64,000 nucleotides of DNA from a virus (Duplodnaviria; Heunggongvirae; Uroviricota; Caudoviricetes). The stretch's first letter is position 1, and each line of letters begins with the position of its first letter. The notes under the pieces are model-generated. The model made no database searches and was not told the origin of the DNA. It was given only the letters and a program-made list of their open reading frames with translations. This document shows, piece by piece, positions 44,503 to 54,481 of this stretch. Where the stretch lies: the IMG/VR virus record IMGVR_UViG_2574180019_000006; one strand, 5' to 3'. Both the position numbers and the translations under genes were made by a program.

Positions 44503-45606
44503 ATGAAAAATAGCTTTGACAGAGCACGCGCTGCGGAGAACACCTCAAAAGAGGCGATAGAGTATCTCGAAAGAGCATCTCAAATGCAGGCCGTTATGAT
44601 CTCGCAGGTTAGCAATGACATGAGATTCTCGGACGCATTCATGTTATTCACTCGCTTATCTCTGCTGATAACCAGACGTCGGCCAGAGATCGCTGTTCAT
44701 TGTATTTTGATACATGTTTTGCCGCACATTGCCGATGTAAAAGTAAGTGACATTAATAGGTTCATGGTGAACCAACTGGTCAACCCACTAATACTGGATG
44801 GCAAAATTGTTATGGGCCGCCGCGTTTTCTCTCTGATGAAGCAGTTCCTTAGCTGGTGCGCCTTCCAGGGGATGATAGACGTGTCACCGTTAAACGATAT
44901 GTCACTTAACAAAGTTGCCGGTGGCGCAAAGCCCACACCTCGCGAGCGGAAGCTGACCGACGCAGAGGTATGGGTGTTCTGGAATATATGGGACTACTTC
45001 AATGTGTGCGCTGGTACAAAATGGGCGGCCAGGCTGTGTCTTGTATCAGCAAGACGACCTGACGAAGTACTGCGGGCTAAAAAAAGTGAGTTCAATCTTA
45101 AGCGTGGAGTTTGGAATCAAGGCAAGAGAAACAAGTCAGCACGTGAGCATTCGCTGCCTTTAAGCACATTAATGCGCACATGTATTGAAGAGTTGTTCGA
45201 ATACGGTAAAGGCAGCCAGTGGCTCGTGCCTTCGAATAAAAAAATCGGGAAAGACCTTCCTATGTCTAAAGTGGCAATAGCCCAGGCATTACGTCGTATT
45301 CTGGAACGACCAGAACTGATGGAGCTTGAGCCATTTACACCCCGAGACTTGCGCCGTACTGCGCGTAGTTACTTCCCAGCTTTAGGCATAAGCCAGGAGG
45401 TATCACGCAAAATCATGAACCACAGTCTTGAGGGGATAGATCGAGTCTACGACCGGCACGATTATATGGACGAGATGCGAGACGCCTTAGAAAGTTTCTC
45501 GACGTACATCGCATCAATCGTAGAGCAACCGGATTTAGACGAAATTGACCACAAATTCAAGGGAGATCGTCTATCAACAGAGCTTATTCGTGTAAATTTT
45601 TCATAG
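44503..45606 (+). CDS. Tyrosine recombinase/integrase
   Basis: C-terminal catalytic-domain signatures of phage integrases (ARRPDEV, PRDLRRTARS, VYDRHDY); true start codon uncertain. Confidence 0.7.
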   Translation: MKNSFDRARAAENTSKEAIEYLERASQMQAVMISQVSNDMRFSDAFMLFTRLSLLITRRRPEIAVHCILIHVLPHIADVKVSDINRFMVNQLVNPLILDGKIVMGRRVFSLMKQFLSWCAFQGMIDVSPLNDMSLNKVAGGAKPTPRERKLTDAEVWVFWNIWDYFNVCAGTKWAARLCLVSARRPDEVLRAKKSEFNLKRGVWNQGKRNKSAREHSLPLSTLMRTCIEELFEYGKGSQWLVPSNKKIGKDLPMSKVAIAQALRRILERPELMELEPFTPRDLRRTARSYFPALGISQEVSRKIMNHSLEGIDRVYDRHDYMDEMRDALESFSTYIASIVEQPDLDEIDHKFKGDRLSTELIRVNFS

Positions 45607-45987
45607 AGACTTTATGGCCTCAACAACCTTTTGTGATGCGCCTTTCTCTTTACCGAATCGCTCGTTATATGCAGCAAGAACCTGTTTTTCGTCCTCGTTA
45701 AGAGGAGCGGTGCCTTCTTTGTATAAAAATGCTGCGAGTTCAGGTTGGCGTTCTTCCAGCACCATCATCATAAGACGACTTGGCTCAATACCCAGCGCCA
45801 GCGCCAACGGACGAACCTTATCGATAGGCAAAGGAATTTTGCCACTTTTAATTAAAGAAAGGTTGTTGGCATTTTTATAACCAATAAGTCTGGCTATTTG
45901 GGCCTGACTCATAGGTGAGGATTCAATCAGCCCTGCGATAAAAGCAGCATAGCGACTTTCTATAAATTCAATCTTGTTGTCAGACAT
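45601..45987 (-). CDS. XRE-family helix-turn-helix transcriptional regulator (candidate phage repressor)
   Basis: 128 aa; HTH segment SQAQIARLIGYKNANNLSLIKSGK; divergent from downstream genes; an imperfect palindrome GGTAAGTGCTTACC lies in its upstream region. Confidence 0.6.
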   Translation of the reverse strand: MSDNKIEFIESRYAAFIAGLIESSPMSQAQIARLIGYKNANNLSLIKSGKIPLPIDKVRPLALALGIEPSRLMMMVLEERQPELAAFLYKEGTAPLNEDEKQVLAAYNERFGKEKGASQKVVEAIKSL

Positions 45988-46237
45988 TGTTACAACCTTT
46001 GCGCGTTCAATTCTCTCTGGTAAGTGCTTACCGATATTACATCAAAGGTTAGGGTTGTAAAGCTATTATCATTTTTTCGATAGGCACTTAAAAGACCGGT
46101 TAAAGGCCATTGCACGGAGAAAAATTAGCCCAAAACAGGTAAGAAAATTAACTTGCATATGATATGAATGTATTCAGTATTGATATAAATTTTAGTAGTA
46201 TTCCTTACCATAGTATAAGTTAGAATGGATTGATTGA

Positions 46238-46450
46238 ATGAACACCACTATTTCCAGCCTAATCGCTCTTGAGATCGGACACGTACAGAAATTAGCTGAT
46301 GAGTGTGTAGCTGACATCCTCACCGATCTACCGAATGAGCAGATTCAGGTTGGTGTGAATGACACAACTGGCTTTATATTCGAACTTAACAACAAACGCT
46401 TCACGCTTCTCAATATCGGCTCCGGGTCTTTAGCCGTCAGAATCTGTTAA
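46238..46450 (+). CDS. Hypothetical protein
   Basis: 70-aa ORF followed by an inverted repeat CTGCGCGAA...TTCGCGCAG. Confidence 0.3.
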   Translation: MNTTISSLIALEIGHVQKLADECVADILTDLPNEQIQVGVNDTTGFIFELNNKRFTLLNIGSGSLAVRIC

Positions 46451-46548
46451 CCCCTCTTCTCCCTGCGCGAATGGCTTAGTTCCCTGTTCGCGCAGTGCTA
46501 CATTAAACACACTAGTAAATAATTTGTTTTCATAACAAAGGATTAGCC

Positions 46549-48657
46549 ATGTCTAAAAAACGTTCCATCAAAGAGGTTCAGGACTTCCGTGACAGTGTAA
46601 AACGAGTAGTCGCTCTCCTTTCAGGTAAAAACATCCCTGTTGCAGAACGAGGGGACGACGCTTATGTACGCTATAACGATGATGGAGAGCCAATTCTCGT
46701 AAACATCCCATCAATCCCGGATAACGCAACACCGGCATTGATGAATGCTGTGCGCGGATTTCTCGATCATGAGGTTGCTCACATTTTGTTTACCGATATT
46801 CGTGTGTCCAACAAAATGAGAGAAAAAGGACGCGTTCCTTCCTGGTCGCTATGGAATGCCTTAGAAGACGTGTTCATCGAGCGAAAAATGGGTCAGGTCT
46901 TTAACGGAACAAGACGTAATCTGATGGCAACTCAGCGCCTTATAATCGAAAAAGTCTTTAAACCAAAGGCTTCAGAGGCTATTGCTTATTGTGGCAAAGA
47001 TCAGCGCGCGCTTTTTCTAAACTTCTTTCTCTGTCCGGTTGTAAGAGCCTGGGATGGCCAAGCACCGTTCGTAGATTTCATGGATGAACATTGGCCTGTC
47101 ATTGAGAAACCAATTTCATTATTAAAAGAACATGGTATCGATGTGGCCGTGCGTAACATGTCTTGCACCGAGGATTGTGTAAAGGTGGCTGCGACCATAG
47201 CTAAGATCCTCAAAGACACTGAAAGTGAAAGCAAAGGTAAGGAGTCAGCTCCGGGAAAAACTTCCGATCCTTCAGACGCTGACCAGACGGATGCCTCTGG
47301 AGAAAACAATGAAGACAACGAAGATCATGAGACTCCCTCAGTGTTAGATAATCACAAATCTATCAAATCAGAATCACATAGTAAGTACAAACATGATAAT
47401 AACAACAGTGATGATTCAGATAATTCTGAATCATCAGAAACAATATTCGATGATACAGAAAATGATAAAGAGGTATCAGATTCTGATGCTTCTGATAACG
47501 CGGCGTCAGAATCATTAACCGCTGACCACGAAAAAAGAAAAACGACAGAAGACGGCTCTTCAGATATCCCAACTCCGTCAAAAATGAGTCTGGAAGAGGC
47601 TTTAGAGGAGCTGGATAGCATAGAAGATGAAGTCGGAGGCATGACAGAAGATGCTCTATCCGAAACGATTAAAAGCGAGTTAACAGAAAGCTCGAAAAGC
47701 GAATACAGGCCATACAATCGCTCATACGACTTCATCGGCTCGATTGATCAGGCAGAAGCCCATATCAAACGGCTTATTAAAACATTCTCCGATATTGATT
47801 TGGGAGGATATCCAATCAGCCGCTATCGCATCGTTCCTGAAGGCAACCAGCTCTTCGACAAATATATTGAAAAGCATCTTTCGTCAGGTGTTTCGTCGAC
47901 GCTGGCAAAAGACCTGGAGCGAGCAATAGCAAGCAGAAACAGAGTTCAGTTTATACCGGGCCAGCGTCGGGGGCGCATTCATGGTTCTAGTATCTACAGA
48001 TTAGCAATGAATGATGCTCGCGTGTTTCGTAAAAAAGAAGAATCTAAAGCCGTTAACGCCTGTGTTCAACAAGTGATTGATTTATCAGGTTCAATGAGTG
48101 GTATAACGATTAAACTGGCTCTTGCAAGTGCATATACCATCGCCGATGCCCTTGATCGAATAAATGTTCCCAACATTATCACCGGCTTCACTACATTTGG
48201 TAGTCATATGGCGGCAGGAGAACTTAAGGCTGTCAAGTATGAGTTCTCTCGCTTTGAATCTTTAATGCTACCTATCATCAAAAATTGGAATGAAAAGGTA
48301 AATTCTCGCGAAGTTCGCTCACGTATGGGGTGCGTAGGCTACACATTCCCACTTCTTAATAACGTGGATGGTGAAAGCATAGCCAGCCTTGCATCGTTAT
48401 TTTCCGGTCGCATGGAGGACAGGAAGATCATGCTTGTTCTGAGTGATGGCGCGCCGTGGGCTGTTGGGAGAGGTTTTGACGCTCATTTGCGTTCAGTTGC
48501 GAAGCAAATTGAAACGCAGACTGATATTGATTTGCTGGCAATTGGCATCATGACTGACGCACCGGAGAGATTTTACTCAAATCATGCCCTGGTAACGAGC
48601 GTTGATAGTCTTGGTTCATCTGTAGTTACTGAACTATCTCGTATCATTTTAAAGTGA
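46549..48657 (+). CDS. vWA-domain protein (CobT-like) with acidic disordered linker
   Basis: C-terminal von Willebrand A domain with MIDAS-like DLSGSMSG; central 250-aa Asp/Glu/Ser-rich low-complexity segment; partner AAA+ ATPase gene follows. Confidence 0.6.
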   Translation: MSKKRSIKEVQDFRDSVKRVVALLSGKNIPVAERGDDAYVRYNDDGEPILVNIPSIPDNATPALMNAVRGFLDHEVAHILFTDIRVSNKMREKGRVPSWSLWNALEDVFIERKMGQVFNGTRRNLMATQRLIIEKVFKPKASEAIAYCGKDQRALFLNFFLCPVVRAWDGQAPFVDFMDEHWPVIEKPISLLKEHGIDVAVRNMSCTEDCVKVAATIAKILKDTESESKGKESAPGKTSDPSDADQTDASGENNEDNEDHETPSVLDNHKSIKSESHSKYKHDNNNSDDSDNSESSETIFDDTENDKEVSDSDASDNAASESLTADHEKRKTTEDGSSDIPTPSKMSLEEALEELDSIEDEVGGMTEDALSETIKSELTESSKSEYRPYNRSYDFIGSIDQAEAHIKRLIKTFSDIDLGGYPISRYRIVPEGNQLFDKYIEKHLSSGVSSTLAKDLERAIASRNRVQFIPGQRRGRIHGSSIYRLAMNDARVFRKKEESKAVNACVQQVIDLSGSMSGITIKLALASAYTIADALDRINVPNIITGFTTFGSHMAAGELKAVKYEFSRFESLMLPIIKNWNEKVNSREVRSRMGCVGYTFPLLNNVDGESIASLASLFSGRMEDRKIMLVLSDGAPWAVGRGFDAHLRSVAKQIETQTDIDLLAIGIMTDAPERFYSNHALVTSVDSLGSSVVTELSRIILK

Positions 48658-48752
48658 ACAAAACAGCCTTTACGATAAGTAACCACTTACGATATATAAT
48701 GATATATTTATATAAGAAGTTGAACGCTCATTAGAGAACAAAGGAAAAACGC

Positions 48753-49988
48753 ATGACGACTACTGCACTGCAAAATGAAAAAAATCCTTCTGATTACCTT
48801 GTTTGCAAGTGGTGCGGCAAATCATTTCACTATTTTAAGTCCCATGTAGCCAATGGTAATTGCGAGGGCATTCCTGAGTCAGTAAAAGATGCCGATCCTG
48901 ACACCGTACTGAAAATGTACACAACGCAGTTTCCAGATGAACCAACGCTATCGAAAAAGGCACTTGATGCAATTCAAGCTAAACGTGCCGAGCAAAAAAG
49001 CGAAATGGCCAAATCTTCTGGCTTGACCAGTAGCCCTGGCTACACAGGCACAGTTGAGTACAAGACAGATCTGGTCGCAGCTCACGAACTGCTAAACGTA
49101 ACAGTGGAAGAACTCGGAACAAAACGTGGGACGCCGCTCATGGTTAGCGTTAACGTCAATACGCCGTATCCAGAGTTCGTTCCAGAAGTGAAGAAGGGCT
49201 ACGTATATGGCGACTTCGAACTGATCAAAGATATTTTCATGATGCTTGAACTTGGCATACCTGGCTATTTGTGGGGTCATGCAGGAACAGGCAAATCGTC
49301 ATTGCCTACACAGCTATGTGCTTTGCTCAATCGTCCGTTGATCCGTGCCCAACATACAGCATCAATGGAAGAGGCACATGTTACGGGGCAAATTCTGGCG
49401 CGTGATGGCTCTACGTATTTCGAACCTGGCTTGCTTGCGCTCGCAATGAAGCATGGCTGGGTTTACCTCGCGGATGAATACGACTTTGCGTTTCCACAAA
49501 TTCTTGGCGTGTATCAGCCAGTGCTGGAAGGTGAAGCGTTGGTCATCAAAGAGGCAACTCCAGAATGGCGTCGCATTACTCCGCATGAACGGTTTGCTTT
49601 CATTGGCACTGGCAACACGAACGGATCTGGTGATGAAACCGGCTTGTACCAGGGTACAAACATCCAGAACGCCGCGAACTTTTCGCGTTTTGGCATCGTT
49701 TCGAATGTGAAATACATGAGCAAAGACGCAGAGATCAACATGTTGACAAATGCAGGCATCGTGGATGAATACGCTGAAAAGATGGTTAAGTTTGCCGGTA
49801 TCGTTCGCGATGGATACGAAGAACACCTCATTAGTCAGCCAATTGGCCCTCGTGAACTTTTGTTGTCGGCCAAGATTGGAATGATGCGAGGCGACTTTGT
49901 GACAGGTATTGAGCGTTCTTTCATTAACAAACTCCCTTCAGCTTCTGCACAAGCGGCTCGTGAAGTTGTTCAAAAAATATTTGGTTAA
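48753..49988 (+). CDS. AAA+ ATPase (MoxR/CobS-like) with N-terminal Cys-rich segment
   Basis: Walker A GHAGTGKSS, Walker B VYLADEYDF; N-terminal CKWCG...C motif; paired with the upstream vWA protein. Confidence 0.65.
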   Translation: MTTTALQNEKNPSDYLVCKWCGKSFHYFKSHVANGNCEGIPESVKDADPDTVLKMYTTQFPDEPTLSKKALDAIQAKRAEQKSEMAKSSGLTSSPGYTGTVEYKTDLVAAHELLNVTVEELGTKRGTPLMVSVNVNTPYPEFVPEVKKGYVYGDFELIKDIFMMLELGIPGYLWGHAGTGKSSLPTQLCALLNRPLIRAQHTASMEEAHVTGQILARDGSTYFEPGLLALAMKHGWVYLADEYDFAFPQILGVYQPVLEGEALVIKEATPEWRRITPHERFAFIGTGNTNGSGDETGLYQGTNIQNAANFSRFGIVSNVKYMSKDAEINMLTNAGIVDEYAEKMVKFAGIVRDGYEEHLISQPIGPRELLLSAKIGMMRGDFVTGIERSFINKLPSASAQAAREVVQKIFG

Positions 49989-49990
49989 TC

Positions 49991-50194
49991 GTGCGTAAAG
50001 GATGTTTCGGCTCTCTTATCGCTGCTTCTGAAACTGGTAAGGCTTGTCTGGTGTGTCCAGACAAGCCCGATTGTCACCAATCAGCAAAAGAAGTTGCGAT
50101 TTCGATGCATGGGAAGTTCGTAGGCTTCCCCAATGACAAAATCAAAAAAACCAGAAAGGTAAAAACACATGAAGGCACTGATGGTTCGAACTGA
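49991..50194 (+). CDS. Small Cys-rich hypothetical protein
   Basis: 67-aa ORF with C..C...C..C-like spacing; overlaps the start of the downstream polymerase gene. Confidence 0.25.
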   Translation: MRKGCFGSLIAASETGKACLVCPDKPDCHQSAKEVAISMHGKFVGFPNDKIKKTRKVKTHEGTDGSN

Positions 50195-52532
50195 CTTCTC
50201 ACTTGGGGAGTCGGCTCTAAAAGCAGAAAACGCGGTGAAGATTGCCAGAGAAGCTGGCTACACCGCTGTAATTTCAGCAGATAGCATGAATATTGCGAGC
50301 GTTATTCCACTACAACGTGCCGCTGGTGACGACATGGCGGTTATTTGTGGTGTGAAACTAAACATTGTTGATGATCCCACATACGAGCACCGGGCTAAAC
50401 TTGCTAAAGAATCTATGAGATGTATGGAATCATTAGAGCGAGGACGTAACTACTCGTTTACCGCTCTAATTAAAAATGAGAAAGGATATCGCGACATCTG
50501 CGAACTAATGACGGCGGCCAACACACGAGAACAGTTCTACTTTGTACCGCGTCTCTCGCTCGAACAGTTGGTTTCTACATATGCCAAAGGCAACATCATC
50601 CTGCTTACTTCCGACATCGGTAGCGTGTTCCAACGCAACGATTTTGCAAAAATCATAAGCACACTGATTACAGCGGGTGGAAAAGACAACTTCTATAGTG
50701 TGGTTTATCCGCACCCTACCCCATTCTACGACCAGATTAACGTCCGGGCGATGAAAGTCGCCAGCGCATTGAAAATAGAGCCAGTGGCGTTCTATCCCGC
50801 TTATTACGAATCGATCGACGATGCAGACATTAAAGACATTGCGCACATGGTTACGAACAACATCAAAATCGACCAGCCGCATCGTCTGCGTATCCCCCAC
50901 CAGCGAGATAACGCCGTCAATGGTCGCCGCCATCTCCTTGAGGCGCTTAAAGCCTTCTCCGTTCGCATGGATGTGCCGGTAACAGCTGCAATGGCCTCAA
51001 CAACGCAGGATACCATTATCGATGCCTGCACATGGCGCTGGCATGAATTGCCGCCAGCACTGCCAAAGATGGCAGACGACGAGCCTGCAACGCTGATGAA
51101 ACTGGCTGTTGCAGGGCTGCGTAAACGTCTTACCACAAAAGAGTTTGGCTACACACCACCTGCTTCTGAGAACAGGGTTTATGTTGAGCGGCTAAAGTAC
51201 GAAATGGACACGCTGACTCGCCTGGGATTCTGTGGTTACTTCCTGATGGTGCGCGATCTGATGAATCATAGTCGTGAAACTGGCATTCCCGTTGGGCCTG
51301 GTCGTGGTTCCTCTGCCGGTTCTCTGGTGGCGTGGTGCATAGGCATAACCAACGTCGACCCAATCCGTCACGGTCTTCTGTTTGAGCGTTTCATCAACCC
51401 TGAGCGTCTCGACTTGCCGGATGCGGACTTGGACTTCAGCCAGGCACGTCGCCATGAGGTGATCGAGTATCTGAATGAACGCTACGGCGAAGATTACGTT
51501 GCAGGCATTCCGAACTTCACCTACCTGGGCGCAGCCTCTGCACTACGTGATACCGCTCGTATTTATGGTGTGGAGTCCGCAGATATGGCGGTATCAAAAG
51601 AACTGAAGAACGTCGAGGATGATAGCCTTCCATTGGAAGAGCTGCGCGAACAACTGGCAAGTCTCGACAAATACGCAACAAAATATCCTGATGCATTCAA
51701 TGCAGCCTGCAAGTTACAAAGCCTTATGCGTGGCTTTGGTAGACATGCGGCAGGGATGATCGTAGCAGGTGTTCCTCTGACAGAACGTACACCGGTTGAG
51801 CGCCGTGGTGACGCGCGTTGTATCGCATTTGACAAGCGTTACTGCGAGGCTATGGGCCTAATTAAGCTGGACGTGCTTGGCCTGGCAACTCTCGATTTGC
51901 TCGATAGTGCAAAACGCTACATAAAAGAGAACACAGGTGAAGATATCAATCTCGACGCTATCCCACTGGACGATCGCAAGGTTCTGGATGGGTTCGCTGC
52001 AGGGTACACGCAGGGCGTATTCCAGCTGGAGTCCGGCCCCATGCGTAAGTTGCTTAAAGATCTGGGCGGTGGCATCGAGCCAATGAGCTTCAAGACCGTT
52101 GTCGCCACGACCGCACTCTTCCGACCAGGCCCGATTCAATCCGGCATGTTGGACGACTATGTCTCCGTGGCCAAAGGCTTCATGGCTCCACATTCCTTAC
52201 ACCCTATGCTGGACGACATCTCTCGCGACACAAACGGTGTTCTGATTTATCAGGAACAGATCATGGCTGCTACGCGAATCTTGGCGGGGTTCTCAATGGC
52301 GGAAGCAGACTCGGTCAGGAAAGCGATCGGGAAAAAAGATATGGAGAAAATGAAATCCATTGGCGGCGACTTCATTAAGCGAGCGGAGGAAGGCTGTGTG
52401 ACAGTGTCACTGGATGACGGTTCTACGAGAAAAATCCATAAAGCAGCACGCCTACTTTGTGCTGATGGTGAGCGTCGCACTTATGCCGAAGCAATGGCAA
52501 TAAATGCCGACATAACGAGCTTCGATATTTGA
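50169..52532 (+). CDS. DNA polymerase III alpha-like (DnaE family), N-terminal fragment
   Basis: 787 aa; polymerase core motifs (GPGRGSSAGSLVAWCIGIT, LDVLGL, FRPGPIQSG, IYQEQIM); ends with a 45-aa non-homologous tail before the stop. Confidence 0.75.
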   Translation: MKALMVRTDFSLGESALKAENAVKIAREAGYTAVISADSMNIASVIPLQRAAGDDMAVICGVKLNIVDDPTYEHRAKLAKESMRCMESLERGRNYSFTALIKNEKGYRDICELMTAANTREQFYFVPRLSLEQLVSTYAKGNIILLTSDIGSVFQRNDFAKIISTLITAGGKDNFYSVVYPHPTPFYDQINVRAMKVASALKIEPVAFYPAYYESIDDADIKDIAHMVTNNIKIDQPHRLRIPHQRDNAVNGRRHLLEALKAFSVRMDVPVTAAMASTTQDTIIDACTWRWHELPPALPKMADDEPATLMKLAVAGLRKRLTTKEFGYTPPASENRVYVERLKYEMDTLTRLGFCGYFLMVRDLMNHSRETGIPVGPGRGSSAGSLVAWCIGITNVDPIRHGLLFERFINPERLDLPDADLDFSQARRHEVIEYLNERYGEDYVAGIPNFTYLGAASALRDTARIYGVESADMAVSKELKNVEDDSLPLEELREQLASLDKYATKYPDAFNAACKLQSLMRGFGRHAAGMIVAGVPLTERTPVERRGDARCIAFDKRYCEAMGLIKLDVLGLATLDLLDSAKRYIKENTGEDINLDAIPLDDRKVLDGFAAGYTQGVFQLESGPMRKLLKDLGGGIEPMSFKTVVATTALFRPGPIQSGMLDDYVSVAKGFMAPHSLHPMLDDISRDTNGVLIYQEQIMAATRILAGFSMAEADSVRKAIGKKDMEKMKSIGGDFIKRAEEGCVTVSLDDGSTRKIHKAARLLCADGERRTYAEAMAINADITSFDI

Positions 52533-52580
52533 GAATTAATTTATAAGATAAGAAAACAATTTGTTTAGTGAGTCTTAGAA

Positions 52581-53315
52581 ATGCCGAGTACGAAGTACAA
52601 AATCACAGAAGAATGGTTACGTCAGCGTTACATGGTTGACCTGATGAGAAAAGAAGACATTGCCGCCGAAGCTGGTTGCAGCAAGGCAAATATTGACCGC
52701 TTATTAGCCAAATGGGGGATCAGGCGCGGAAACGCGCGGATCTCCGCTACCCCAGCCTGGAATCGTGGCAAAAACAAAAATAATGACGAACGTATGAAGC
52801 GACTCTCCGAAGCCCGGACTGGCACTGGCAACCCTATGTATGGGAAAACCTCGTGGAATGCCGGTCTGCGTGCTGATATCGATGAGCGAGTGGCCACCGT
52901 TTCGAAAAAGCTAACCGGCAGAACAATCCGCGCGGAGACGAAGGAAAAGCTGGCGGCTGCCAAACGCGGAAAGATCGGAGAAGAAGCGAACAACTACAAA
53001 GGTGGCATCATCGTAAAAACCAACGGCTACATGATGCAGCTGGTTGGTAACAATGGAGTTTCGCAATACGAATACGTTCATCGGTTGATAGCGAAAGAAC
53101 GTCTCGGTCGGGAGCTACGTGACGATGAACATGTCCACCATATTAACCGCGATACGGTAGATAACGCCCCTGGGAATCTGGTGGCACTTCCAGAAGACGC
53201 CCACATTCGCCTGCATAGCGAAATGCGTGAAAAGGTATGGAGCTGGGAGCGCCAGCGGGACTGGCTGGCCTCCAATGGGTATGAGTTCGTGAAGATTGAT
53301 GAGGTGACTGAATGA
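52581..53315 (+). CDS. HNH homing endonuclease
   Basis: 244 aa; HNH motif EHVHHINRDTVDNAPGNLVALPEDAHIRLH and NUMOD-like repeats; inserted between the two halves of the polymerase gene. Confidence 0.7.
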   Translation: MPSTKYKITEEWLRQRYMVDLMRKEDIAAEAGCSKANIDRLLAKWGIRRGNARISATPAWNRGKNKNNDERMKRLSEARTGTGNPMYGKTSWNAGLRADIDERVATVSKKLTGRTIRAETKEKLAAAKRGKIGEEANNYKGGIIVKTNGYMMQLVGNNGVSQYEYVHRLIAKERLGRELRDDEHVHHINRDTVDNAPGNLVALPEDAHIRLHSEMREKVWSWERQRDWLASNGYEFVKIDEVTE

Positions 53316-54481
53316 AAATTACCAGTGTAGTTGAAGAGAGCAATGGCCTGACGCACGAACGAGCCGAAGAAATCTGGAATATGTTTGAGAAATCCGGCGC
53401 GTATGCCTTCAACAAATCACACTCTGTTGCTTACTCCTTAATCAGTTATCAATCTATGTGGTTGAAAACTCATTATCCCGCGGAGTTCTTCGCTGCTGCT
53501 CTCACTATTCTTGGCGAAGATAAACACCAGGGGCTGGTTAAAGATGCGCTGACCTATGGTATTCGCGTATTGCCACCAGACGTTAACGTGTCATCTAACC
53601 GAATCGAGATCCGCACGCTTGAAGATGGCAGCCAGGTGCTGTATGCGCCCTTCTCTGCTGTGAAAGGGTGTTCTGAGAATGGCTGCCAAGCCATCATGAG
53701 AGCGCGAGAAAAAGTTGGCGGCAAATTCGAGTCACTGGCGCAATTCGAAGAAGCTGTCGAGAAACGTGCCTGTAATAGTCGAGTGCACGAATCACTGCAA
53801 AAAGTAGGTGCGTTTGCATCCATCGAGCCAGGTAGTCTGCCAGCAACTGATCCAGAGCGTCTCCGCGACCAGGCTGAATTGATGGGAAACCTTGTCATAG
53901 ACGCAGTTAAAGCCTCACGTCCGTTTGAGATGAACCCCAAACGTTCGGCTGAGATTAACGTGCTCATGACACGGATGGCGGCTGAAATGGGATTAGGTGA
54001 TGAACTAATCCGCCCTAGCATTGGCATTAAGCCGAAAATCATGATCATTATGGACAATGCAAACGGCAATGATGCTCGAACCGGTTACTTTATGGAGAAC
54101 GGATACGACGATTTTAAGGCCAAGCTGTTGACGGCTGGGGATTTGCGCATGGGCGATCTCTATGTCACAGGCGTTTGCAAAAAGGTGAAAGACAAAGAAA
54201 AGGACTACACCAAAGACGAGATCGGCCAGTTCACCGACTTTATGCGTGAAGAGATCAATCTGGTGCGCCCGACCTATGTGCTGACGTGTGGTAGCCGGGC
54301 AACGGCATTGTTTAACAACAAAAACAAGCCATCCGATTTGGTCGGCAGGAAGGAGTATCTTCCAGACCTTGACGTTACTGTCTTTTACGGGTTTAACCCC
54401 AACATTCTTTACTTCAGACCTGAAGAGGGAGAACGACTAGAAGCGATATTAGCCGACGTAGCAGAAACTATTAAGTCGTGA
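53312..54481 (+). CDS. DNA polymerase III alpha-like (DnaE family), C-terminal fragment
   Basis: 389 aa; begins near the conserved AYAFNKSHS...YQ..WLK.HYPAEF motif that directly follows the region where the N-terminal fragment stops. Confidence 0.7.
   Translation: MKITSVVEESNGLTHERAEEIWNMFEKSGAYAFNKSHSVAYSLISYQSMWLKTHYPAEFFAAALTILGEDKHQGLVKDALTYGIRVLPPDVNVSSNRIEIRTLEDGSQVLYAPFSAVKGCSENGCQAIMRAREKVGGKFESLAQFEEAVEKRACNSRVHESLQKVGAFASIEPGSLPATDPERLRDQAELMGNLVIDAVKASRPFEMNPKRSAEINVLMTRMAAEMGLGDELIRPSIGIKPKIMIIMDNANGNDARTGYFMENGYDDFKAKLLTAGDLRMGDLYVTGVCKKVKDKEKDYTKDEIGQFTDFMREEINLVRPTYVLTCGSRATALFNNKNKPSDLVGRKEYLPDLDVTVFYGFNPNILYFRPEEGERLEAILADVAETIKS

Follow-up and report, generated by a model that had tools for sequence, protein, structure and literature searches.

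A CobT-like adaptor with a zincin-type motif and a CobS/MoxR-class ATPase encoded upstream of dnaE in an SSU5-like phage-plasmid

What do genes named after the subunits of a cobaltochelatase do in a phage? The question is raised by two adjacent genes at positions 46,549 to 49,988 of a 64,000-nucleotide (nt) stretch of Caudoviricetes DNA (IMG/VR record IMGVR_UViG_2574180019_000006; the whole stretch is called the window here), which encode a CobT-like adaptor with a von Willebrand A (VWA) domain and an AAA+ ATPase of the CobS/MoxR class. Phage cobS and cobT belong to the core genes of T4-like cyanophages, and in viromes they are routinely taken for an auxiliary metabolic function in cobalamin synthesis. 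The B12-biosynthesis label carried by these genes in thousands of phage genomes and viromes feeds ecological conclusions. The gene pair is core in several large phage groups, including the clinically common phage-plasmids of E. coli, Klebsiella, Salmonella and Yersinia. The pair itself is already known and annotated, at present under the RefSeq names “cobaltochelatase CobT-related protein” and “AAA family ATPase”. From domain identities, motif conservation, gene order and the absence of CobN from the element, we favour with modest confidence the reading of the pair as a MoxR-type motor-adaptor remodeller that probably doubles as a metallopeptidase, acts early on a replication-associated or host-takeover client and does not serve cobalt chelation. 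The value of this reading would lie in the case it makes about the label for this element, in the contrast between an active peptidase-like domain and the pseudo form of real CobT, and in a client that should be findable with a trap mutant.

The two genes and their parts are as follows (aa, amino acids; pLDDT, predicted local distance difference test; MIDAS, metal ion-dependent adhesion site).

46549..48657, + strand: gene of the CobT-like adaptor, 702 aa (open reading frame (ORF); Pfam CobT and CobT_C; phrog_1576, E 1e-300; AlphaFold pLDDT 85.3, predicted template modelling score 0.78), consisting from N to C of a zincin-like domain, an acidic linker, a shaft/extension and a VWA-MIDAS domain
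46549..47244, + strand: N-domain, aa 1-232 (predicted model with one helix, a three-stranded sheet and about nine helices)
46768..46782, + strand: HEVAH (zincin HExxH), aa 74-78, with D73 just before it (motif conservation)
46855..46881, + strand: N103-x2-E106-D107-x3-E111 helix, candidate for the third metal ligand/catalytic helix (E106, D107 and E111 invariant)
47221..47583, + strand: acidic, Ser-rich disordered linker, aa 225-345 (D+E 29%, S 20%)
47584..48057, + strand: N-terminal extension of the C-domain, aa 346-503 (alignment to 9uka_G)
48058..48657, + strand: VWA domain with MIDAS (D511-x-S513-x-S515, T548/T549, D633; Pfam, conservation and structure searches)
48753..49988, + strand: gene of the CobS-like / MoxR-class AAA+ ATPase, 411 aa (ORF, Pfam and structure matches; AlphaFold pLDDT 90.4)
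48798..48962, + strand: predicted Ros/MucR-type zinc finger and 'Y-x3-FP-x2-P-x-LS' element, aa 16-70 (motif and profile evidence)
49176..49988, + strand: AAA+ module, aa 142-411 (Walker A G175-K181, Walker B D241-E242, N288/N290, R312, R367)

An earlier note on this DNA had given the coordinates of both ORFs exactly and had read their products as an AAA+/vWA pair. Profile searches of the kind it called for, together with structure searches, bear this reading out: the AAA+ fold, the vWA fold and the pairing are all supported, and judged by the matches both folds lie far beyond chance. For the adaptor, the full-length profile matched the solved CobT 9uka_G with E 1e-62, and the Pfam CobT N-domain covered aa 9-293 (E 1e-26). 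The MIDAS-like DLSGSMSG pointed out before is at aa 511-518, inside a CobT_C/VWA match (aa 492-701, E 1e-81), and the MIDAS is complete, its residues being invariant among the aligned relatives. The disordered linker, which had been put at 250 residues, is in reality only about 100-120 aa long: pLDDT falls below 50 only at aa 238-337, while aa 346-503 are predicted by AlphaFold to be folded and belong to the C-terminal domain. By alignment, aa ~461-503 may be the equivalent of the CobT 'shaft' that enters the CobS ring pore; in this region G475 is invariant and E457, R458 and G471 nearly so.

For the ATPase, the predicted Walker A (GHAGTGKS) is at aa 175-182 within a Pfam AAA_5 match (aa 173-293, E 2e-15). 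The C-terminal 270 residues align to the solved CobS 9ujv_A (aa 39-315, E 1e-25), followed by Midasin, CbbQ and NorQ, and the AlphaFold model superposes best on NorQ and CbbQ (TM-score 0.84-0.87). Residues G175, K181, D241, E242, N288, R312 and R367 are invariant in 63 relatives, and in total 1636 homologous proteins were found at E<=1e-5. An AAA_5 module with intact Walker A/B, sensor and arginine residues next to a VWA gene is what places the pair in the MoxR class, alongside NorQD, CbbQO, RavA-ViaA and CobST.

Is the pair then a cobalt chelatase? The element itself is an SSU5-like phage-plasmid, as shown by the matches of the locus: many E. coli plasmids of ~110 kb carry it at 99.9% identity and Escherichia phage Cyrano at 98.5%, while Salmonella phage SSU5 reaches about 74% in the part that aligns. 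About 4% of complete E. coli genomes (219 of 5426) contain the pair, which is plasmid-borne in every case, and all 228 E. coli matches to the pair are located on plasmids. The complete plasmid pSLy3, whose locus is 99.8% identical to that of the window, contains no CobN and no other cob gene in its full annotation, and its ribonucleotide reductase (RNR) is of class Ia, which is B12-independent. The aerobic cobaltochelatase (EC 6.6.1.2) receives its hydrogenobyrinic acid a,c-diamide from the corrin pathway. Its subunit CobN bears the active site (PMC7689651), and in the holoenzyme it sits between CobT_N and the MIDAS face (bioRxiv 10.64898/2026.07.21.739949). In E. coli only B12 salvage is described, and de novo synthesis needed foreign cobN, cobS and cobT (PMC6249242); for the host side, the absence of CobN and the corrin pathway is taken from the literature and not from a scan of the E. 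coli chromosome. The adaptor architecture and the Walker A/B motifs of the ATPase are those of chelatase subunits, but the equivalog scores are far below the cut-offs, with 86.6 bits against 558.55 for the ATPase (CobS, TIGR01650) and 68.8 bits against 759.05 for the adaptor (CobT, TIGR01651). Since the element has neither CobN nor a corrin pathway, the host is described as salvage-only and the scores are below cut-off, the “cobalamin” label fails here, and the case that the pair does not work in cobalt chelation in this element is well-supported. The product names in the Cyrano record OV696614 (20551-23990), 'dimethylbenzimidazole phosphoribosyltransferase' and 'cobalamin synthetase', are an annotation error that stems from a clash of two unrelated CobT/CobS nomenclatures, those of Salmonella and Pseudomonas.

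What the adaptor may do instead is suggested by its N-domain. The earlier note described the vWA domain and the linker correctly in kind but missed a zincin-type HExxH ahead of them. The N-domain alone matches PF06213 with E 9e-22, and hhalign aligns it to the true CobT_N over 121 columns (E 1.2e-4). The crystal structure of CobT_N has the same order of secondary-structure elements, and its authors liken the fold to peptidase M48C (bioRxiv 10.64898/2026.07.21.739949). PDB searches with the single sequence or the N-domain profile did not reach the CobT N-domain, and the full-length profile reached it weakly. An exhaustive search of cluster representatives, used for the count because a word-indexed search gave almost only fragments, found 1126 representatives at E<=1e-3 with the CobT-like N-domain alone as query.

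It turned out that the HExxH is present in all 127 full-length representative relatives of the adaptor, and that D73, H74, E75, H78, E106, D107 and E111 are invariant across 88 aligned sequences. Distant adaptors from a T4-like cyanophage, Vibrio phage ICP2, Gordonia phages and a Roseobacter phage keep the HExxH too. True CobT was represented by 40 aligned alphaproteobacterial proteins (of 72 extracted from genome loci), in which H74, E75 and H78 are replaced by S, M/I and R/K, so that the segment reads D-S-M-x-x-R, and D107 is replaced by Q. Common to the adaptor and true CobT are R/Q-G-x-x-D, E106, E111 and G120. Because the HExxH columns are replaced in CobT and kept in the phage proteins, real CobT is by its residues a pseudopeptidase, and the phage adaptor looks like the active form of the peptidase-like domain. 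The HExxH and a conserved downstream acidic ligand are features of zincins, and the domain probably holds a metal and has hydrolytic activity, though it matches no curated peptidase family.

The shared R/Q-G-x-x-D points to a second property of the N-domain. In CobT, R76 and D80 form a salt bridge from CobT_N to the small subdomain of CobS (bioRxiv 10.64898/2026.07.21.739949), and in the alignment they correspond to the conserved R/Q69-G70...D73 of the phage adaptor. As this element holds the CobS-contact residues, docking of the adaptor on its motor is probably conserved. A separate observation on this domain is that aa 90-141, with the N-x2-ED-x-FIE helix, gave a weak profile match to the anti-CRISPR AcrIIA26 (9zq6_B; E 0.0025 and 0.018); it is marginal, and we judge the likeness to be probably chance.

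The ATPase carries 141 residues ahead of its CobS-aligned part, compared with about 38 in true CobS. The earlier note had called this N-terminus Cys-rich; it is a distinct segment indeed, but it contains only three cysteines (18, 21 and 37), which belong to a predicted, divergent Ros/MucR-type zinc finger. C18, C21, H26, H31, Y56 and S67 of the finger element are invariant among aligned relatives (the first four in 35 sequences), and the CxxC...H...H pattern is found in 95 of 113 ATPase relatives. In the window's copy the candidate ligands are C18, C21, H31 and C37, with C37 probably the fourth, which satisfies the pattern C-x2-C-x9-H-x3-5-H/C. The best PDB match of the finger-region profile is Ros87 (2jsp_A, E 2.4e-4), and PF05443 (ROS_MUCR) matches 29 of 35 relatives at E<=1 (best 4.7e-7), two relatives having a precomputed match; the window's own copy is too divergent to match PF05443. 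The N-terminal extension varies between phage lineages, the cyanophage CobS having no Ros/MucR-type finger, and this fits a targeting module. Long unrelated N-terminal extensions were also seen in the ATPases of Gordonia phage Jams (locus L172, 4209-5768; 519 aa, with several CxxC pairs) and Roseobacter phage CRP-810 (locus L173, 1827-3680; 617 aa).

Compared with known systems, the pair is closest by sequence to CobS-CobT of the aerobic cobaltochelatase CobNST (PDB 9ujv, 9uka-9ukh), whose genes are adjacent there as here. CobT has the same M48C-like N-domain, acidic disordered linker (about 90 aa; bioRxiv 10.64898/2026.07.21.739949), shaft region and VWA domain with MIDAS. The identity is however only about 27-29%, a CobN partner is absent, the adaptor reads D-HExxH...ED where CobT reads D-S-M-x-x-R...EQ, the ATPase has an extra N-terminal part of ~140 aa with a zinc finger, and cobT precedes cobS in the phage whereas cobS precedes cobT in alphaproteobacteria. 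The architecture has been partly anticipated for jumbo phages: the MoxR-vWA pair of the T4-like group 2.2 (Iyer et al. 2021, PMC7824862) has the same three parts, but it was assigned to virion assembly, while here the pair is found in a ~110-kb temperate phage-plasmid, in a replication module upstream of dnaE. A cyanophage 'peptidase' and cobS pair also aligns with the window's proteins and keeps the HExxH and MIDAS. NorQ-NorD, which inserts FeB into nitric oxide reductase (PMC13036017), shares only 13-20% identity with the phage pair; NorD has no zincin domain, and the client is a membrane enzyme absent from the phage element. Rea1/Midasin differs more, being one giant eukaryotic polypeptide of six AAA modules for ribosome biogenesis with no peptidase-like domain. 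For the finger, Ros87 (PDB 2jsp) shares the C-x2-C-x9-H spacing and an '...E-x-Y...' segment after it, but the phage finger, unlike Ros/MucR proteins, is an N-terminal appendage of an AAA+ ATPase.

When is the pair likely to act? The gene order in the window is integrase, divergent helix-turn-helix (HTH) gene, 70-aa ORF, cobT, cobS, 67-aa ORF and dnaE, where the genes around the pair are the following.

45601..45987, - strand: divergent HTH (repressor-like) gene (weak sub-threshold Pfam HTH_19/HTH_37; 'putative repressor' in Cyrano)
46238..46450, + strand: 70-aa ORF, the first past the divergent region and directly upstream of cobT (phrog_2627, E 5e-40)
49991..50194, + strand: 67-aa ORF with a GTG start and four Cys (phrog_6337, E 3e-45)
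50169..52532, + strand: N-terminal part of dnaE (PHP, polymerase, fingers; Pfam)

The 67-aa ORF starts 2 nt past cobS, and its end runs 26 nt into dnaE. Because these three genes abut or overlap, and because the + strand showed no terminator-like site from 46000 to 50400, the pair is apparently co-transcribed with dnaE, which is probably the next gene of its transcription unit. Among close relatives, cobT is directly upstream of cobS in all 76 with room to judge, dnaE follows in 73 of 75, and the 67-aa ORF is conserved in 73 of 75. In pSLy3 the pair is inside the replication/recombination module, about 19 kb from the nearest tail gene, and in the window the pair has the same replication genes around it.

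Outside the close relatives, diversity was sampled from annotated phage records and from the contigs encoding the homologues, as a locus search by ATPase alignment gave only relatives of at least 77% identity. The order cobT-cobS-(small ORFs)-dnaE-gp32-exonuclease-recA is kept at 35-48% identity in Pseudomonas, Rhizobium and Stenotrophomonas phages and in metagenomes. The adaptor and ATPase genes are adjacent in all further lineages inspected, and the pair is outside the structural modules in all seven phage lineages looked at. For instance, in Vibrio phage ICP2 it is located between small early genes behind three σ70 promoters and the primase/helicase/polymerase genes, with the structural genes on the opposite strand, and in the T4-like cyanophage Syn33 it is located between gp47/gp46 and gp45/gp44/gp62. 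In cyanophage P-SSM2, cobS is an early-gene marker (PMC6628666). Independent lineages thus agree on a non-structural, early position. Gordonia phage Jams and Roseobacter phage CRP-810 have the ATPase gene before the adaptor gene, the reverse of the window order.

Putting these results together, we infer a mechanism whose proposed elements are the assembly of ring and shaft, the activity as a peptidase, the stage at which this phage uses the machine, and the client. By analogy with CobSTN and NorQD, the 411-aa ATPase would form a hexameric ring, on which the 702-aa adaptor would dock through the conserved R/Q-G-x-x-D element of its N-domain. The phage proteins would thereby form a physical complex with the shaft ahead of the VWA domain entering the ATPase pore, and the client protein would be gripped by the N-domain on one side and the MIDAS face on the other, where the chelatase has its CobN. 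ATP hydrolysis would twist or pull the adaptor and so remodel the client. As an intact zincin site (D-HExxH...ED...E) would lie beside the client position, remodelling probably goes together with metal-dependent hydrolysis, in which the client would most likely be cut by proteolysis. As its genes are apparently co-transcribed with dnaE and lie downstream of the repressor-like gene, the machine would be at work early in the lytic cycle, on a client linked to replication or to host takeover, and the Ros/MucR-type finger of the ATPase could be a lineage-specific targeting module. A bolder extension, which we hold only tentatively and think rather doubtful, is that phage 'cobS/cobT' are not chelatase subunits but an ATP-driven early zincin protease/remodeller, and that cellular CobT is a derived pseudopeptidase of an older adaptor type. 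It would connect the class I chelatases in their evolution to MoxR–VWA remodellers whose peptidase is active.

Several points weigh against this reading. The histidines of the motif are lost in the Nickievirus phages ZY21 and nickie (DSEISK) and in Stenotrophomonas phage BUCTxx99 (DREVST), whose adaptors (loci L002, 6847-8931; L175, 1232-3316; L176, 4855-6840) retain the MIDAS and the partner ATPase; some lineages can therefore do without hydrolysis. The N-domain has no match to a Pfam peptidase family, even at E<=10, and the single peptidase-labelled match is phrog_459 'peptidase' (E 5.7e-7, aa 72-128). Both fold searches are dominated by the VWA domain and do not separately resolve the N-domain fold, and for some M48C relatives, YgjP among them, the reported activity is nucleotide hydrolysis and not that of a peptidase. 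On the side of targeting, the finger region is not basic (mean net charge -1, pI 6.5), so that DNA binding by the ATPase finger is unsupported and can be taken as a lead, not a result. As for timing, the conserved linkage to dnaE mostly reflects vertical descent in a single phage supergroup, the pair is among small unknown genes and not beside replication genes in Gordonia and Roseobacter phages, and a simple scan for consensus promoters, which returned fewer sites than shuffled sequence did, had none on the + strand ahead of the operon. Moreover, the searchable literature yielded no experiment on a CobS/CobT of any phage.

The caution of the earlier note that the role of such a pair in a phage is not obvious was justified, and replication help, assembly help and an anti-defence function are still live. 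The explanation implied by the gene names, in which the infected cell makes more cobalamin because viral CobS and CobT join its CobN or a CobN-Mg-chelatase mosaic, is very improbable here. By sequence and structure the nearest relatives are CobS and CobT, the CobS-contact motif and MIDAS are retained in the adaptor, and such a role was proposed for archaeal and marine viruses (PMC8651126) and repeated later (PMC11705849). A hijack of host CobN is nevertheless not applicable to an element without CobN in a host described as salvage-only, and Salmonella uses CbiK (PMC7689651). The sub-cut-off scores, the lack of any corrin gene and the B12-independent RNR tell against it as well, as do the conserved HExxH without a counterpart in true CobT and the presence of the pair in ICP2, a phage of V. 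cholerae. Virion assembly is a better candidate, although still quite unlikely. In this case the pair would fold or assemble tail or head proteins, which the zincin domain would trim, and exactly this architecture (MoxR and vWA with an N-terminal metallopeptidase) was given such a role in the group 2.2 jumbo phages by analogy with ATV p618/p892 (PMC7824862). The location argues otherwise: the distance to the tail genes in pSLy3, the early/replication arm of ICP2, and the position between recombination and clamp-loader genes in cyanophages, with early cobS in P-SSM2 (PMC6628666), are those of a non-structural pair.

Only slightly less unlikely is a NorQD-like chaperone that inserts a metal cofactor into a metalloenzyme, such as NrdB of the class Ia RNR, the PHP domain of DnaE or a host enzyme, with the HExxH in metal handling. 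Most characterised MoxR-VWA pairs insert metals or help metalloenzymes to mature, NorQ and NorD are nearest in fold, and the element encodes both NrdAB and a PHP-containing DnaE. However, no one metalloenzyme partner is common to the lineages, cyanophages use a different polymerase system, and lineages without the histidines retain the pair. RNR or DnaE as a universal client is ruled out, as ICP2 has neither. We give a small but appreciable chance to a host-takeover or anti-defence device. Shortly after induction or infection it would seize and cleave a protein of the host, be it an immune effector, a nucleoid protein or a part of the replisome. Such a device is consistent with the early position and timing, with the spread of the pair over unrelated phages of unrelated hosts, and with the N-terminal module of the ATPase, which varies by lineage as expected for changing targets. 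On the other hand, the pair shows no likeness to known defence or anti-defence families, the AcrIIA26 match being marginal, and core-gene status with slow vertical evolution in the SSU5 supergroup is unusual for counter-defence genes. Membership in a defence system was rejected too, as PADLOC gave only a DrmE match of 15.8 bits (E 1e-3).

The remaining observations concern the neighbourhood. The 250-nt divergent region between the HTH gene and the 70-aa ORF (45988-46237) contains the palindrome GGTAAGTGCTTACC at 46019-46032, GGTAAG at 46139-46144 and CTTACC at 46205-46210, all of which are candidate operators. Between the 70-aa ORF and cobT there is a 9-bp stem (46463-46471 / 46487-46495) without a T run. 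A weak homologue of the 67-aa ORF was found in phage JGB6. The apparent CobT-DnaE fusion in this Xanthomonas phage (OQ436456) is an artefact of shifted product names and frameshift-broken genes. Besides, dnaE is split in the window (50169-54481), compared with one 3519-nt gene in relatives: about 260 nt are replaced by about 1050 nt (52355-53407) with an HNH_3/NUMOD3 homing-endonuclease ORF (52581-53315), which leaves two DnaE ORFs of 787 aa (50169-52532) and 389 aa (53312-54481). The polymerase gene of ICP2 is likewise interrupted by an HNH gene.

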